This document shows positions 12,986 through 25,861 of a stretch of 25,861 nt of DNA, piece by piece. Position 1 is the first letter of the stretch. Each line of letters begins with the position of its first letter. The position numbers and the translations under genes are program-made. Source of the stretch: a virus; the UHGV virus genome UHGV-0115523, one strand, 5' to 3'. The notes under the pieces were generated by a model. It made no database searches. It saw only the letters and a list, made by a program, of their open reading frames with translations, and had not been told where the DNA came from.

Positions 12986-12986
12986 T

Positions 12987-13029
12987 AAACATCTCTTGCA
13001 GGAAACTTCCCTGCAAGAGATGTTTTGCA
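12987..13029. terminator. Bidirectional intrinsic terminator between convergent Q and the cargo operon
   Basis: Perfect 15-16 bp inverted repeat aaacatctcttgcagg / cctgcaagagatgttt around a 7-nt loop, flanked by T-runs on both strands. Confidence 0.65.
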
Positions 13030-13036
13030 ATGACAC

Positions 13037-13318
13037 TCAAAAAGATAATAATCGCCCCCCAACATTTTCGATAAAATCTAACTCTAACTCCTCCATATCG
13101 GATATTATCATGAGATGAATAGGCAATATCAATTGAAGTTTATTTATTTTCATTCTCAAAAGAATAACATCTGGAACATAACCAACGATTAAAATATCGA
13201 TGTCATTGGCTTCATCGATACTTTTGAGTGCGGAGCCAAACAAATAAACCCGGACTCCATACAAGCAATGCTCCAAAATAATATCACAAACAGCTTCAGT
13301 TATAACTGATAAATTCAT
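13037..13318 (-). CDS. Minimal nucleotidyltransferase (MNT, Pol-beta superfamily) domain protein, about 93 aa; start trimmed to the Met that overlaps the upstream stop
   Basis: Motif LFGSALKSIDEANDIDILIV fits hG[GS]-x9-DhD; ATG at 13316-13318 overlaps the upstream TGA (TGATG coupling); AT-rich. Confidence 0.6.
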   Translation of the reverse strand: MNLSVITEAVCDIILEHCLYGVRVYLFGSALKSIDEANDIDILIVGYVPDVILLRMKINKLQLILPIHLMIISDMEELELDFIENVGGRLLSF

Positions 13319-13968
13319 CACTTCGAAATTCGACTCAGCAAATCTCCCCATTTGAATATTTCAATATTCATACTTCGGGCTGCAATGGTAGCCTCATGGG
13401 TAATTCTACTATAAGGGTTAGACGATAAAATAATATCGCAACCGCCATGTATCTGACATGCAGTGCGCACAGCCTCTGCACTCAAATCATAATCATTCAC
13501 GGAAAGAATAATCAAACTTGGTCCTGAACACCTTTCAACCATATATTTTTTATTGGTCAACCTTTCGACACTGCTGACATCAGAGTGTTGACGGAGTCCA
13601 CGGATAATAAATTTATTTTCTTTATCAAGATGTTCACTGATATTTTCTAAATCTAAACCCGTTGAAAAACGTCCAAAAGAATCATATGCAATCCCTTTTG
13701 ACCGTAGCAACTCAATTGCATCTCCAGACATAAATAACAAATCGCCTTGAATAATTAGTATATTTAATTCTTTATCATTCAAATATTCATTTAAATCGGA
13801 TAGTTCTATTCTTCCTGCATTTACAGCACCAACAAGATATATCTCCCCATTCCTTGTTGTTACCGTTAAAGTTTGATTGTCATGTTCTATAACATTATCA
13901 ACACTATGTTTAGTGCATAACTTTTTATTCATCCAATTAATAAAATTCTGACTCATTCCAATGCTCAT
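13318..13968 (-). CDS. Hypothetical 216-aa protein, middle gene of the cargo operon (contains an RGLRQH stretch; function unknown)
   Basis: Long ORF tightly coupled to flanking genes (3-nt gap upstream, 1-nt overlap downstream); AGGGTGA RBS; AT-rich. Confidence 0.5.
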   Translation of the reverse strand: MSIGMSQNFINWMNKKLCTKHSVDNVIEHDNQTLTVTTRNGEIYLVGAVNAGRIELSDLNEYLNDKELNILIIQGDLLFMSGDAIELLRSKGIAYDSFGRFSTGLDLENISEHLDKENKFIIRGLRQHSDVSSVERLTNKKYMVERCSGPSLIILSVNDYDLSAEAVRTACQIHGGCDIILSSNPYSRITHEATIAARSMNIEIFKWGDLLSRISK

Positions 13969-13971
13969 AAC

Positions 13972-14667
13972 TCACCCTTTAAATAAATCAATTGCTTCAG
14001 GAGGGAATTTCTCACCATTATCACATGTTAACTCTAAATGTTTTGATTCAAAATCATCAACATGCATGCAAAGCTTAACAAAAACATCTTTTTCATCTTC
14101 ATGAATTAATTGATAATTTTTATCAATTAGTCTTATAATTTTTCTGTTATTAGGTAGGATATGTGTTTGGATTTTCCTTAACCATATATTTACTTGCGGA
14201 CTTTCAGGGTTTAGTGCTGCCTCTGATTGGGGTCCATACGTATTAAATATTACTTTATTTTCCCTAAACAACTTATCAAGCTCAGCATGTACCTCTTCAC
14301 GGCTATCAAACTCACGAACTCCAAAGGTTGCATTAATTTTCGCGATATGCTCTCCTTTCCATCCCCTGATAATTTCATCCGTATAATAATTCTCAGCTTT
14401 ATCTATTTTAGTATGACAATTAGCGCAAAGAAGAATTATATTATCAAAATACCCTCTCTCTTCGGCAGTTAATTCCGTATTAGTTCTAGGCCCATTATCA
14501 ATTGCACTGAATATATGCGCCAATTCACCAATTGTAATAATTTTATCTCCAGCATCTTCGAACAACGGTTCAAGACATTTAGGGTTCTGGCAATACCCAC
14601 CTGAACTTGCGAAGAGCTTCCTGACTGTGATTGATCCGGGACTAGCCCGCCCTCGTGAACATGCCAT
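13972..14667 (-). CDS. HNH nuclease-domain protein (N-terminal HNH motif plus about 140-aa C-terminal domain of unknown function)
   Basis: CQNPKC ... ELAHI ... FDNIILLCANCH gives the CxxC...H...N...CxxCH HNH signature; AGGAGA RBS; first gene of the three-gene operon. Confidence 0.65.
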   Translation of the reverse strand: MACSRGRASPGSITVRKLFASSGGYCQNPKCLEPLFEDAGDKIITIGELAHIFSAIDNGPRTNTELTAEERGYFDNIILLCANCHTKIDKAENYYTDEIIRGWKGEHIAKINATFGVREFDSREEVHAELDKLFRENKVIFNTYGPQSEAALNPESPQVNIWLRKIQTHILPNNRKIIRLIDKNYQLIHEDEKDVFVKLCMHVDDFESKHLELTCDNGEKFPPEAIDLFKG

Positions 14668-14786
14668 TTCGTATCTCCTGATTGGGTTCGAATTTTACAA
14701 TAAATTATGATAATCAAACAAATTTAGCTAGCAAATAAATTTCCTATGTCGTTTAATTTCCCTAGCGTTTTAATATCAAGCGCGCG

Positions 14787-14805
14787 CTCGTATCCCCGCC
14801 ACGCC
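14787..14805 (-). other. Candidate cos (cohesive end) site of the P2/186 type
   Basis: Minus-strand GGCGTGGCGGGGATACGAG resembles the remembered 19-nt cohesive ends of 186 (GGCGTGGCGGGGAAAGCAT) and P2 (GGCGAGGCGGGGAAAGCAC); lies at the expected place beyond the 3' end of Q. Confidence 0.5.
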
Positions 14806-15147
14806 TGCCCGCTTTATGTAGTGGTTTTCATGCAGGTGCATGATCTACGCAAAAGCCCGCCAGTTCTGGCGGGCCTTAGCAAAAACGATCCTCAAACGAT
14901 CATGCAATCTCATGCAGCATAGACATGCACAGACGAGTAAAGCGAATCGGACCTTACGCAAGGTGAACTCCTCAGCGGGCATAATCAGTATGTCGGAAGA
15001 TCTCTAAAAATAAATAATTCGGTTAACAGGTATGCTTACAAAAGCATATATTTGATTAAAAATCATGTAAGGGGGAGGATCTCAAACTGAATCGCCACGG
15101 GTTTTACAAATTTCGATAGTCTCTCTAACGTTTCGGCTGAGGTCAAA

Positions 15148-15573
15148 ATGAAAAGCTTTTACGTATTAATTTTAATTCTGGTTGCAAGCTTTGTTAGCGT
15201 CCCAGTTCAGGCGGTAACAGCTAAAAACTATGAGAAAGGAACTAAAGCTCAACAGAAATCAATATCTTACCTTTCATGTGCATTCTATGGCAGTAGCACA
15301 CAATTAGATCCTAGCTACACGGAGCAAGTACCTACAGCCGATATCAAGATATTACAGAAAGCAGCTTACCACGCTTACAACGATGCGCTCTCATACTTTG
15401 GCTATGAGGAACCAGATCACGAACAACGCATAATTGATTATGCTGAATTTGTGGCGTCGCAAGAAGCTGTGTTATGGGATAAGCCGGGAATGAATGGAAA
15501 GCAGGTAACACTAATTGCTCGTTCTCTCTACAATGAGAGTAACTGTAACTTGTTACTGGACTCAATTAAGTAG
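15148..15573 (+). CDS. Secreted or periplasmic hypothetical protein with cleavable signal peptide (cargo)
   Basis: N-terminus MKSFYVLILILVASFVSVPVQA then mature domain; GAGGT RBS; AT-rich. Confidence 0.55.
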   Translation: MKSFYVLILILVASFVSVPVQAVTAKNYEKGTKAQQKSISYLSCAFYGSSTQLDPSYTEQVPTADIKILQKAAYHAYNDALSYFGYEEPDHEQRIIDYAEFVASQEAVLWDKPGMNGKQVTLIARSLYNESNCNLLLDSIK

Positions 15574-15732
15574 GAAAAAGATGGTATTTTGCCCGTAGTT
15601 TCAACCTTAATCTCCGAACCTGTCGCAGAACGGGCGTTCACTCATCAAATAAACGCCACACCTAACGCCTCACTGTACTCGTTGTTCAACCTTGCTGACG
15701 CCAGAACCAAGTTCAGACGCCAGCAACTTTTC

Positions 15733-15966
15733 TTAATGCAGCCAGCTGTCGTCTTCCCACACCTTCTGCATAATCTTCATCACTTGTTTTCTTTCTTCGT
15801 CCAGTTGCAGTCCGGTCAGTTCCACACCGTTAGAGCTACCTTTGCGGATGCGAATTACCATTTTGGGATACAGGGGGCGCAGATTGCGGTAAAGCTCGGA
15901 TTCAAGGGCGTCCAGGGTAGACTGGCTAATCTTCTGCTCTTTATCGATCATTATTTCAATGCGCAT
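15733..15966 (-). CDS. DinI-family protein (about 77 aa)
   Basis: MRIEIMIDKEQKISQSTLDALESELYRNLRPLYPKMVIRIRKGSSNGVELTGLQLDEERKQVMKIMQKVWEDDSWLH matches the DinI pattern (MRIE..., acidic W-containing C-terminus); GAGGTG RBS; the ORF-track frame extends upstream to 16038 but that start is less likely. Confidence 0.65.
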   Translation of the reverse strand: MRIEIMIDKEQKISQSTLDALESELYRNLRPLYPKMVIRIRKGSSNGVELTGLQLDEERKQVMKIMQKVWEDDSWLH

Positions 15967-15976
15967 AAAGGTCACC

Positions 15977-16165
15977 TCAGCTGATGACATCCATTGAGCG
16001 GTTGTATTCGTGGGTTCTGATTTTTGCCATGAGTTCATCAGTCAATTCAGAAACCCACTGCAGAGCCAGCCCCTTCTCTTCATCACTACACTCACTAGCC
16101 GCTACAAGCTTAAGAAAAAAATCAATGCGCTGGAGCTTCAAAGACTCCAAAAAATAGTCCTGCAT
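15977..16165 (-). CDS. Small 62-aa protein, first gene of a LexA-box-controlled cassette
   Basis: Strong AGGAGG RBS 7 nt upstream of the ATG; LexA box 43-58 bp upstream; stop 10 nt before the DinI-like start. Confidence 0.5.
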   Translation of the reverse strand: MQDYFLESLKLQRIDFFLKLVAASECSDEEKGLALQWVSELTDELMAKIRTHEYNRSMDVIS

Positions 16166-16207
16166 CTTTCCTCCTATGACACCAAAGTAATACTGTATAT
16201 ATAACCA

Positions 16208-16223
16208 CTGTCTATATTTACAG
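16208..16223 (-). promoter_or_regulatory. LexA (SOS) box CTGT-N8-ACAG
   Basis: actgtctatatttacagta is near-consensus to TACTGTATATATATACAGTA; an adjacent half-site tactgtatat lies at 16191-16200. Confidence 0.65.
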
Positions 16224-16317
16224 TATATAATAATCTTACTGATGTAAAACGTTTTTTTACGTTCATCAGCCTGAAATGCCTGGTATTATTAAGAGCACGA
16301 ATTGTTAACCCGCGTAA

Positions 16318-22061: not shown

Positions 22062-22943
22062 ATGAATTTCAAAAACGGAGGACAAGCAGTCATAACGCGC
22101 ATGCTTGAAGCGTATGGATTCAAGACAAGGCAAGCTCTGTGCGAACAGTTCAACGTATCTGCAAGCACTATGGGCACGCGCTGGATGCGTGACGTATTTC
22201 CTGCTGACTGGGTAATTCAGTGTGCAATTGAAACGGGTGCATCTATCGAGTGGCTCTCATTCGGAAAAGGCGTACCATTCCCTCAGAGTACTGAGGCTCC
22301 GGTCATGTCAAAGGCAACTGCATCAAAGGTTCAGCACGTTTCTCAAGCCACCACCCTGAAGTCCCCAATTGGGAACGATCTGAATTTTGACTCAGGCGGA
22401 CGTGATGCAATAGACAGGCTAATGAAAGCGTATGGCTTTAAAACAAGACAAGAACTTGCCGACCATCTGAATGTATCTAAAAGCACTATGGCAAATAGAT
22501 ATTTGCGAGACACATTCCCGGCTGATTGGATCATAAAATGTTCGTTGGAAACAGGAAATTCTCTTTTATGGCTAGCCACTGGACAAGGCAGCGAGCACAA
22601 TGCTCTCACAACATCGGTAAAAGAACTGCCTAAATTTCATCTCAATGCAGGCAAAATGGTTGAGAGTGGCTCATATATTTTCGATTCGTCATTTTTACCC
22701 GCTAATCTTTCAGCACCAATTGTCGTTCAGGATGGTTTAGTGGCATACATCTGTGATCAGAAATTTTCTGATGTATTAGATGGATACTGGTTAATTAATA
22801 TTGATGGAACCTATTCCGTCAGACAAATTACTAGGCTACCTAAAGGTATGATAAATATCAGAAGTAAAGAAACTTACTTTGAATGTGCATTTTCTGATAT
22901 CGAGGTAGTTGCATGCATAAGAAGCACAATCATTTCGAATTAA
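22062..22943 (+). CDS. cI: CI immunity repressor (186 CI family) with a tandemly duplicated N-terminal DNA-binding domain
   Basis: Two copies of the 186-CI-type NTD signature (AYGFKTRQ...NVS.STM..R..RD.FPADW.I.C..ETG.S..WL..G.G) at residues ~9-70 and ~115-176; 293 aa versus about 192 aa for 186 CI. Confidence 0.7.
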   Translation: MNFKNGGQAVITRMLEAYGFKTRQALCEQFNVSASTMGTRWMRDVFPADWVIQCAIETGASIEWLSFGKGVPFPQSTEAPVMSKATASKVQHVSQATTLKSPIGNDLNFDSGGRDAIDRLMKAYGFKTRQELADHLNVSKSTMANRYLRDTFPADWIIKCSLETGNSLLWLATGQGSEHNALTTSVKELPKFHLNAGKMVESGSYIFDSSFLPANLSAPIVVQDGLVAYICDQKFSDVLDGYWLINIDGTYSVRQITRLPKGMINIRSKETYFECAFSDIEVVACIRSTIISN

Positions 22944-23023
22944 AGTGACATTCAACAAATGTCATTCTAATAGAAGTGATTATATTAAGCGAAAGATTTA
23001 AAAGGTGAAGAGAAGCAATAACA

Positions 23024-24226
23024 ATGAGTAAAACCAACTTTAAAACTGAACGCGGCATTATAACATTTTTTGATTTAGAAATGTTTGGCCTTTATAAAAT
23101 ACGACAAGGCAAATCGCCGGAATTAGTCGAAAAGAACTTATCCCATGTTCTGTGTAACTTACATAGCTGGATCTGTTCAAGAACAGTTGAACAATCTGTT
23201 CCATGGGGAAAGGATAATAATAGAAGAACAAAAGCATACTGTAAAAATATTTCATATGACAGTACGACAGGAGATTATCTATTTGTTATCTGGAAAACGC
23301 TTGGTGATAACTCTGGAAATATTCAAGGTATAGATGCTGAAAGTAAGATTGACGGCACTTCAGATAATGTTGTATCCGCCTCTGATACTCAAGGTGGCGG
23401 TAAATATATCTGGGGCGTACCTTGCTACTATTGGGTAATTCCAGAATATAACAAAATTGCATCCATACGATTCCCAAGTTCTAATACGGATACAGATCTT
23501 TTCTGTCATTATATTAAAGCATACGTTGACTTTAGGATGGAGCATCCTAATAAAAAAGTCATAGATATGACTCGTCCTCGTAATGACTCACCTGAAGACG
23601 TTCATTACAAACGTGTTCTTTTTTCTCAAGGTGATGATGAAAGTTTAGTTTTTAAAGTACAGACTAAACAAACAAGGATGATCACGAGTGGAGCAAACAT
23701 AGAAGAACTGTGTAAAAAAATCACTCACATTGTTTACCATGACGTAATAGAAACAAACATACCTGATACACGGGAAAAATGGCAGAAGTTATTTGATGCA
23801 GTTGGAGATGTTTTCTCAAGAAGCTCTCCTATTTTATCAAAAAAACATCGCGTTGAATTATTAGTCGAAGGAACGCCTACGCCTGAAGAGTTCACTAAAC
23901 TCATCGATGAATATATAGAAAACCACAATCCTATTTCAGAAGATACAGAAAACAACAATGAGAATGTAGGGAATGATCACGCACGCATCGGATTCAAAAT
24001 AAATGGGAAAAATGGTTCAACTACTTGGTTAGATGAATATGTTTATCGCCATGAAATTCACGTTGACCTTTCTAACAGAAACAAACATTACTCTTCTTCA
24101 TATTTAATGAGTGTGGTAAAAGCTCATAGAAATGATTTGGTGAATTGTTTTAAAAATGAAGATATAATAGAACAACCAGAAGCTGATAATGATACAGCAG
24201 TGCAGATTCATAAAATAGGTGCATAG
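23024..24226 (+). CDS. Hypothetical 400-aa protein (cargo; candidate sensor of a two-gene module)
   Basis: Long AT-rich ORF immediately downstream of cI on the same strand; no motif recognised. Confidence 0.55.
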   Translation: MSKTNFKTERGIITFFDLEMFGLYKIRQGKSPELVEKNLSHVLCNLHSWICSRTVEQSVPWGKDNNRRTKAYCKNISYDSTTGDYLFVIWKTLGDNSGNIQGIDAESKIDGTSDNVVSASDTQGGGKYIWGVPCYYWVIPEYNKIASIRFPSSNTDTDLFCHYIKAYVDFRMEHPNKKVIDMTRPRNDSPEDVHYKRVLFSQGDDESLVFKVQTKQTRMITSGANIEELCKKITHIVYHDVIETNIPDTREKWQKLFDAVGDVFSRSSPILSKKHRVELLVEGTPTPEEFTKLIDEYIENHNPISEDTENNNENVGNDHARIGFKINGKNGSTTWLDEYVYRHEIHVDLSNRNKHYSSSYLMSVVKAHRNDLVNCFKNEDIIEQPEADNDTAVQIHKIGA

Positions 24227-24227
24227 T

Positions 24228-24749
24228 ATGATTATAAAACCTAAAATTTTGCACATATGTTTTCTCCTAACAATTATAGCTATTGCTTATTTGTTCGGAG
24301 ACAAATATACGTATGCAGATATAAAAGATATTTTATCTACCTTGCAAAACATTTCTGCAATGATCTTCACTATTGCAGGTATTTGGCTTGCATATATTTA
24401 CCCTGCAGCTGTAAGTTCAATTGTAAAGCCATCAACAATAACTAGTATAAACTATCATAAGGAAACAGAAAAAGATATTGAGCGAATTACGCTGATAGTG
24501 AAAACCATTATAATTTCAGCTATTGTAATATTTTCTATTGTTATAATAAATTTAACGAAACCTATATTTTCAAATCTGGATTTCATTTCCTTGCATAAGC
24601 ACGTGTTCTGCAAGTTTGGATTTTTTATCACAGCGTTATTAGTATATCTACAAATAATAGCGTTATTTAGTATCATTGCTAGTAATATATTATTTCTTAA
24701 TGATATACATGATAAAAGAAATAAACGAGAGCTTGATAAATTAAGGTAA
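24228..24749 (+). CDS. Small integral membrane protein with four predicted TM helices (cargo; candidate membrane effector)
   Basis: Four hydrophobic stretches; ATG at 24228 with AGGTG RBS, one nt after the upstream stop; GTG at 24219 is the ORF-track alternative. Confidence 0.55.
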   Translation: MIIKPKILHICFLLTIIAIAYLFGDKYTYADIKDILSTLQNISAMIFTIAGIWLAYIYPAAVSSIVKPSTITSINYHKETEKDIERITLIVKTIIISAIVIFSIVIINLTKPIFSNLDFISLHKHVFCKFGFFITALLVYLQIIALFSIIASNILFLNDIHDKRNKRELDKLR

Positions 24750-24804
24750 TGTATGGATTTCACAAACCATACATTGACCACTGGTCAAACATACAGTTAA
24801 ATTT

Positions 24805-24830
24805 AGCCCTCTGACATGAGGGCTTTTTTA
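24805..24830 (+). terminator. Intrinsic terminator immediately upstream of the int start
   Basis: agccctc-tgacat-gagggct hairpin followed by TTTTTTA. Confidence 0.6.
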
Positions 24831-25861
24831 TGGCAGTACGAAAACTCACCACAGGGAAATGGCTTTGCGAATGTTACCCCGCCGGACGAAGTGGGCGTCG
24901 TGTGCGTAAACAATTCGCCACCAAAGGCGAAGCTCTGGCTTTTGAGCGTCACACGATGGAAGAAACCGAAGCAAAGCCCTGGCTGGGTGAATCAGTAGAT
25001 CGTCGAACACTGAAAGACGTGGTTGAGCTATGGTTCAAACTACATGGTAAATCACTGACTGCTGGGCAGCATGTCTATGACAAATTGCTGCTGATGGTTG
25101 ACGCTCTGGGCAATCCCCTTGCAACTGATCTCACATCTAAAATGTTTGCCCACTATCGAGATAAACGCCTGACAGGTGAGATCTACTTCAGCGAGAAATG
25201 GAAGAAAGGAGCAAGCCCGGTCACCATTAACCTGGAGCAAAGCTATCTAAGTAGTGTTTTTAGCGAACTATCCCGCCTGGGCGAATGGTCGTATCCGAAC
25301 CCACTGGAGAACATGCGAAAATTCACCATTGCAGAAAAAGAGATGGCATGGCTTACCCATGAGCAGATTGTTGAATTGCTGGCTGATTGCAAACGTCAGG
25401 ACCCAATTCTGGCACTGGTAGTTAAGATATGCTTAAGCACAGGCGCACGTTGGCGTGAAGCCGTAAATCTTACCCGCTCACAGGTGACCAAATACCGAAT
25501 TACCTTTGTAAGAACGAAGGGGAAGAAAAACAGAAGCATCCCTATCAGTAAAGAGCTTTACGAAGAGATCATGGCGCTTGATGGGTTCAATTTCTTTACA
25601 GACTGCTATTTTCAATTTTTATCCGTGATGGAAAAAACGTCTATCGTGCTCCCTCGCGGTCAACTGACACACGTTCTGCGCCATACGTTTGCGGCGCACT
25701 TCATGATGTCGGGTGGAAATATCCTGGCCTTACAAAAAATTCTCGGGCATCACGATATAAAAATGACTATGCGTTACGCACATCTGGCACCGGATCACCT
25801 GGAAACTGCATTACGGTTTAATCCGCTGGCAACACTACCAACATCAATAGCAAGTTTTTGA
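24830..25861 (+). CDS. int: Tyrosine integrase (P2/186 integrase family)
   Basis: 343 aa; conserved C-terminal catalytic region ...LRHTFAAHFMMSGGNILALQKILGHHDIKMTMRYAHL; the stop is at the window end, so the att site is expected just beyond it. Confidence 0.9.
   Translation: MAVRKLTTGKWLCECYPAGRSGRRVRKQFATKGEALAFERHTMEETEAKPWLGESVDRRTLKDVVELWFKLHGKSLTAGQHVYDKLLLMVDALGNPLATDLTSKMFAHYRDKRLTGEIYFSEKWKKGASPVTINLEQSYLSSVFSELSRLGEWSYPNPLENMRKFTIAEKEMAWLTHEQIVELLADCKRQDPILALVVKICLSTGARWREAVNLTRSQVTKYRITFVRTKGKKNRSIPISKELYEEIMALDGFNFFTDCYFQFLSVMEKTSIVLPRGQLTHVLRHTFAAHFMMSGGNILALQKILGHHDIKMTMRYAHLAPDHLETALRFNPLATLPTSIASF

Follow-up and report, generated by a model that had tools for sequence, protein, structure and literature searches.

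Two genes lying between the cI repressor gene and the integrase gene of an Escherichia coli prophage probably form an abortive-infection module of Rex type that would be expressed together with the repressor. The genes, termed A and B here, were analysed within a viral stretch of 25,861 nucleotides (UHGV-0115523, hereafter the window). The window is a 186-type (Peduoviridae) E. coli prophage integrated beside rcdA/ybjJ, and its gene content included CII, a Cox/Apl-like protein, Fil, Dam, the gpA replication endonuclease, portal and terminase. As judged from profile and pairwise sequence comparison, the A-B pair is a member of PDC-M18, an already catalogued candidate anti-phage family.

Both genes are flanked by cI and int and share the + strand with them in the ORF list. 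The presumed lysogenic operon is headed by cI (22062-22943, + strand; 293 aa), which RefSeq names 'phage repressor protein CI' and in which Pfam recognised the Phage_CI_repr HTH in two stretches (PF07022, 4.6e-59) and Phage_CI_C (PF16452, 1.2e-25). An 80-nt spacer (22944-23023, + strand) leads to gene A (23024-24226, + strand), which encodes a 400-aa, presumably sensory, cytoplasmic protein, and this is followed by gene B (24228-24749, + strand), encoding a 173-aa membrane protein that is the presumed effector. The tyrosine integrase gene (24830-25861, + strand; Pfam Int_N 3e-32, Phage_integrase 6.8e-22) then runs to the prophage end next to rcdA. The TAG stop of A (24224-24226) and the ATG of B at 24228 are one base apart, an AGGTG ribosome-binding site lies six bases upstream of this ATG, and a GTG at 24219 offers an alternative start. 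RefSeq places the starts of A and B identically in an E. coli chromosome that is 99.9% identical to the window.

The G+C content of A (0.35) and B (0.278) was lower than that of the whole window (0.496) and of int (0.473). Kyte-Doolittle hydropathy, the only predictor applied to this question, gave four hydrophobic segments in B (approximately residues 6-23, 41-62, 86-110 and 126-156) and none in A. Between the cI stop and the start of A, a terminator scan found no terminator-like site on the + strand; the spacer holds a weak promoter-like match (22959-22986) and a small AT-rich hairpin that has no U-run and is no more stable than its shuffled versions. These results agree with the first-pass annotation, which had described two AT-rich genes co-oriented with cI and not separated from it by a strong terminator, coding for a long soluble protein and, after a 1-nt gap, a small protein with four transmembrane helices. 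When compared with homologues of 63-65% identity, A and B had dN values of 0.25-0.41 with saturated dS, and a dN/dS of ~0.1 where dS could be estimated. On these substitution patterns, A and B are judged to be real genes under purifying selection. The cI of the window itself differs from the 186-type cI of sister prophages, the former having two tandem Phage_CI_repr HTH domains before CI_C and the latter a single HTH in 187-217 aa. Two loci carrying other cargo (L034, L035) have related alleles that likewise encode two HTH domains (292-297 aa, 87-89% nucleotide identity).

The right border of the slot is conserved. Homology among eight loci with different cargo resumes at 24749-24788 (no strand assigned; fold -13.4 kcal/mol), so that the ~80 bases before int share an inverted repeat (ATGTATGG, 24749-24756, and CCATACAT, 24767-24774), a palindrome (TTGACCACTGGTCAA, 24774-24788) and a hairpin followed by a U-run (24805-24829, + strand). 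The hairpin stem (24805-24824) folds at -13.3 kcal/mol (z -2.4; scan and fold against shuffles), and the U-run (24825-24829) abuts the int ATG at 24830. This hairpin likely terminates transcription of cI-A-B. GAGGG (24818-24822) in its 3' arm is probably the Shine-Dalgarno sequence of int, and therefore the structure could both end upstream transcription and mask translation of int. In the eight-locus alignment, L035, L004 and L012 differ in sequence here but preserve the structure; because it is present in relatives with other cargo, the hairpin is part of the conserved phage backbone and not of the inserted module. A terminator hairpin closing the module had been noted earlier (24805-24830): its existence before int stands, but its attribution to the module does not.

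In 186 and P2, int lies directly 3' of the repressor gene. In the prophage lineage of the window, the cI-int slot is a cargo hotspot and A-B is exchangeable cargo. The integrase type occurred in 1135 of 5426 complete E. coli genomes, 12 of which carried A-B in the slot at 99.7-99.9% identity. Sister prophages that share this chromosomal site held other cargo at this position (L003, L005, L036, 2321-3997; L006, 3550-5001; L034, 4403-6150; L035, 4395-6100). This included PD-Lambda-1, a DUF4041/T5orf172 protein (4e-120), a KAP NTPase assigned to PDC-S20, HEC-01, composed of an AAA ATPase and a DUF4276 protein, an IS element, and an unannotated two-gene pair (342 + 226 aa) with zero PADLOC matches that may be a further uncharacterised candidate. 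All six relatives of the prophage lineage that were opened had an occupied slot (6/6), and on its left side the match to the most closely related cI allele breaks off 42 bases before the cI stop. The survey of the cI-int junction suggested in the first-pass annotation thus uncovered variable cargo, and the alternative it had raised, that the 400-aa protein is a conserved phage function found at this position in all relatives, does not hold, as sister prophages carry unrelated genes there. A cI-int hotspot was already described in Vibrio K139-like P2-related phages (Rousset et al.), and the cI-int defence hotspot is now extended to E. coli 186-type prophages.

The window also has a second low-GC (0.387) cargo region (12986-16317), bordered by portal gene Q and replication gene A and known from Rousset et al. 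as the P2 hotspot. On its - strand, 13972-14667 encodes a 231-aa protein whose N-terminal endonuclease region matched PADLOC PDC-M68A (1e-28) and CBASS effector profiles, and this is followed by a 216-aa uncharacterised protein (13318-13968, - strand). Two small ORFs on the + strand (15148-15573 and 15589-15984) had zero matches.

Assignment of the pair to PDC-M18 came from PADLOC and BLASTP. A matched PDC-M18A (PDLC04494, E 2.1e-36), its residues 13-374 aligning with positions 7-336 of the 339-position profile, and five further PDC-M18A profiles were matched as well. B matched PDC-M18B (PDLC04500, E 5.1e-24), its residues 1-169 aligning with positions 1-161 of the 174-position profile. The genes have the PDC-M18 layout, A then B, adjacent on the same strand with a one-base gap. 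In the Domainator paper, PDC-M18 is equated with System #4 of the P4-satellite hotspot (Rousset et al. 2022), and both proteins aligned over their full length with those of pFR81, a System #4 clone (A with protein 1, 28% identity, E 3e-49; B with protein 2, 37% identity, E 7e-34). In PHROGs, A and B each fell into a family that has no assigned function. Neither protein matched Pfam or NCBIfam, leaving no recognisable enzymatic or defence domain; PDB sequence searches (phmmer and two profile searches) returned noise only (neuraminidase, L28 and EF-hand proteins), and no deposited phage genome matched the cassette by megablast.

Table S1B of Rousset et al. (2022) lists System #4 as 'RexA + 4TM', remarks that it 'might be a distant homolog of RexAB' and records '4 TM in protein 2'; the system was counted 169 times in the P4 psu-int hotspot. 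The family and its proposed link to RexAB had thus been catalogued before (Rousset et al. 2022, PADLOC); the carrier position is new for E. coli. The clone pFR81, from E. coli IAI75, was challenged with eight phages in MG1655 under its native promoter and appears among the 'additional tested systems' of Table S2B, not among the seven P4 systems with robust resistance (Rousset et al. 2022). The 2021 preprint had reported moderate protection against P1vir by 'a distant analog of RexAB' from an unnamed clone (pFR81 or pFR86), a claim that was not retained among the validated systems.

We further examined the spread of the family, by a related-locus search with a 14-sequence alignment and by an exhaustive profile search. 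The latter gave 502 representatives of PDC-M18A at the 50% cluster level, 298 of them at E <= 1e-10 and mostly 335-400 aa long, with named members from Enterobacterales, Pontibacterium, Fodinibius, Ca. Thiodiazotropha and Halobacteriovorax. The A-then-B order was conserved, which had not been on record: a B homologue lay immediately 3' of A in 17/17 viral loci with enough downstream sequence, and in the distant loci L025, L028 and L029 it came directly after A with a gap of 1-2 bases or an overlap.

The pair occurred in five contexts. The cI-A-B-int arrangement recurred in 186-type prophages of several genera (L007-L017). In lambdoid-type contigs (L018-L022), a pair of 37% identity was found directly 3' of a CI repressor of HTH + Peptidase_S24 type that faces a Cro/YdaS-like gene, which is the position of rexA-rexB behind lambda cI; this placement behind an S24-type CI in unrelated lambdoid-type phages is likewise new. 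The remaining contexts were the P4 psu-int hotspot, an integrative element of Ca. Thiodiazotropha and a defence island in Fodinibius (L025), where the newly observed neighbours of A and B comprised a type III restriction-modification system, PDC-M19, AbiEii/DUF6088 and BilD. In another lambdoid-type viral contig (L023, 5816-6963), the A homologue is split into ORFs of 108 and 217 aa next to an intact B, which suggests a copy undergoing decay. Lambdoid-type contigs also encode, 3' of A-B and on the same strand, a protein of 157 aa with an HTH_3 domain at its C-terminus (L018, 7850-8323).

If the pair is a Rex-type module, the repressor promoter would transcribe cI, A and B in the lysogen, with the transcript ending at the hairpin just before int. 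A, a cytoplasmic protein with a predicted RexA/RdgC fold and probably a DNA-binding dimer, would sense a product of the infecting phage and then activate B, a small inner-membrane protein of four helices that probably assembles into an oligomeric pore. B would in turn depolarise or permeabilise the membrane, such that growth halts before the cycle of the invader is completed and the second phage is excluded. A role in defence is supported by the position behind the S24-type CI, by the copy in the defence island and by the defence cargo in the sister slots. The Rex-like, candidate defence role put forward in the first-pass annotation gained from the island copy, from the defence genes in the sister slots and from the modelled fold of A. 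Counting against it, the only tested member of the family, pFR81, lies outside the validated seven.

The pair could serve defence by a route other than Rex-style abortive infection, with B blocking DNA entry and A as its partner or regulator, or with A itself acting, like RdgC, on the incoming DNA. We consider this unlikely. The defence contexts and the membrane location of B would fit any membrane-linked exclusion, and B has no detectable relation to RexB. Furthermore, DNA binding by lambda RexA is dispensable for T4rII exclusion according to PMC11077077, and therefore the fold alone leaves the mechanism unfixed. However, B is tightly coupled to its RexA-fold partner even in distant relatives, and RexABpp (PP_5643/PP_5644) of Pseudomonas putida prophage P1 is a validated defence system in which membrane damage is triggered by RexA and depends on RexB (Rosendahl et al. 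2026, PMC12894663). Both the conserved coupling and the P. putida precedent favour an arrangement of sensor and effector.

The directly post-repressor position in two unrelated phage types would also be expected of a pair acting mainly in the prophage's own life cycle, and PMC11077077 describes a switch-modulating role of lambda RexA that is independent of RexB. Such a role is nevertheless improbable as the main one, given that the pair also occurs away from any nearby repressor switch, in the P4 psu-int hotspot, the defence island and the integrative element. It is moreover dispensable for the phage, because the slot of sister prophages holds unrelated cargo instead.

Stabilisation of the prophage by addiction, with B as a membrane toxin and A as its controller in a toxin-antitoxin-like unit, seems quite improbable. 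The close linkage of a small membrane protein to a partner encoded just upstream is compatible with such a unit, as are the growth inhibition by activated RexBpp and the frequent loss of P. putida prophage P1 after internal deletions. Yet A is large for an antitoxin (400 aa) and has a fold of DNA-binding type, the family emerged from defence-association screens (PADLOC PDC), and the P4 homologue could be cloned with its native promoter. A moron for host fitness unrelated to phages, for example in membrane stress or transport, would accommodate both the standing of pFR81 and the absence of Pfam or NCBIfam domains, but is very improbable in view of the fold match of A to RexA, the hotspots shared with validated defence systems and the defence-island neighbours.

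Rex was among the first phage-exclusion systems to become known, and its trigger and mechanism continue to be debated. It is possible, and we put this forward only tentatively, that PDC-M18 is a large and widely distributed sister branch of Rex, in which a RexA-fold sensor is joined to a four-TM effector whose sequence is unrelated to RexB, and which has been captured repeatedly behind the repressors of unrelated (186-type and lambdoid-type) temperate phages. Such recurrence would point to a selected link between Rex modules and immunity operons (e.g. exclusion combined with control of the switch) rather than to a mere insertion hotspot. The family offers numerous natural versions in which a RexA-fold sensor is paired with another membrane partner, and these could help to establish which signal the fold recognises and how it is relayed to a membrane effector. 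The cassette in the window sits in the presumed native repressor operon of an inducible-looking 186-type prophage and is a useful test case; this operon may also be the right expression context, as the plasmid-borne P4 version is not among the validated systems.

Among known systems, Kiwa resembles the pair in having two genes, one for a small four-TM protein (KwaA) and one for a soluble protein of 300-400 aa (KwaB), and in also occurring in the P4 hotspot. In Kiwa, however, the membrane gene comes first, whereas the soluble gene leads in the window. Identity with Kiwa was rejected on this reversed order, on the lack of DUF4868 in A (Pfam, E <= 1) and on the lack of any Kwa match in PADLOC.

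The closest likeness is to System #4 itself, which shares the gene order, the protein sizes, the four hydrophobic helices of B and full-length homology of both proteins. The window pair differs in being a divergent branch located between cI and int of a helper-class prophage of the 186 type and not in the P4 satellite hotspot, and in probably being transcribed from the repressor operon, whereas the pFR81 clone used its own native promoter. With respect to RexABpp, RexApp is smaller than A (37.5 kDa including the tag) and reaches an HHpred probability of 98% to RexA (PMC12894663). A 25-mer derived from a PP_5643 primer was absent from the genome and metagenome contigs, and none of the proteins compared carried the N- or C-terminal residues of PP_5643.

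A relationship of A-B to lambda Rex is not demonstrable at the sequence level. The Rex models perform on lambda proteins (PADLOC RexA scores lambda RexA at 9e-110), and A matched neither Pfam PF15969 nor PADLOC RexA at E <= 1, B matched neither Pfam PF15968 nor PADLOC RexB, and none of 102 diverse family members matched PF15969 at E <= 0.1. Pairwise BLASTP gave no significant similarity between A and RexA or between B and RexB. Family-to-family alignment with hhalign gave a probability of 0.1% for B and RexB, and a weak match of A to RexA (probability 16%, E 0.0016) that is co-linear over A 235-386 and RexA 150-278, the latter spanning the dimerisation domain and C-terminal helix (domain limits from PMC11077077). 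These results concur with the first-pass annotation, in which sequence similarity to RexA/RexB could not be established.

Foldseek with the first model of A gave no significant PDB match, with RexA not listed. The fold predicted for A is nonetheless similar to that of RexA/RdgC; A has the two-domain fold of RexA, although only 170 residues superpose. At 400 aa it is ~120 residues longer than lambda RexA (279 aa, PDB 8TWQ), and the repressor in the window is of the 186 type (Phage_CI_repr + CI_C), whereas lambda CI belongs to the LexA/S24 family. The four hydropathy peaks of B have a spacing similar to those of RexB. Finally, the likeness to Rex in architecture and position that was first noticed in the window is strengthened by the 37% identical pair behind the S24-type CI of another phage type: both here and in the lambdoid-type contigs, the pair lies 3' of an immunity repressor and is co-oriented with it.
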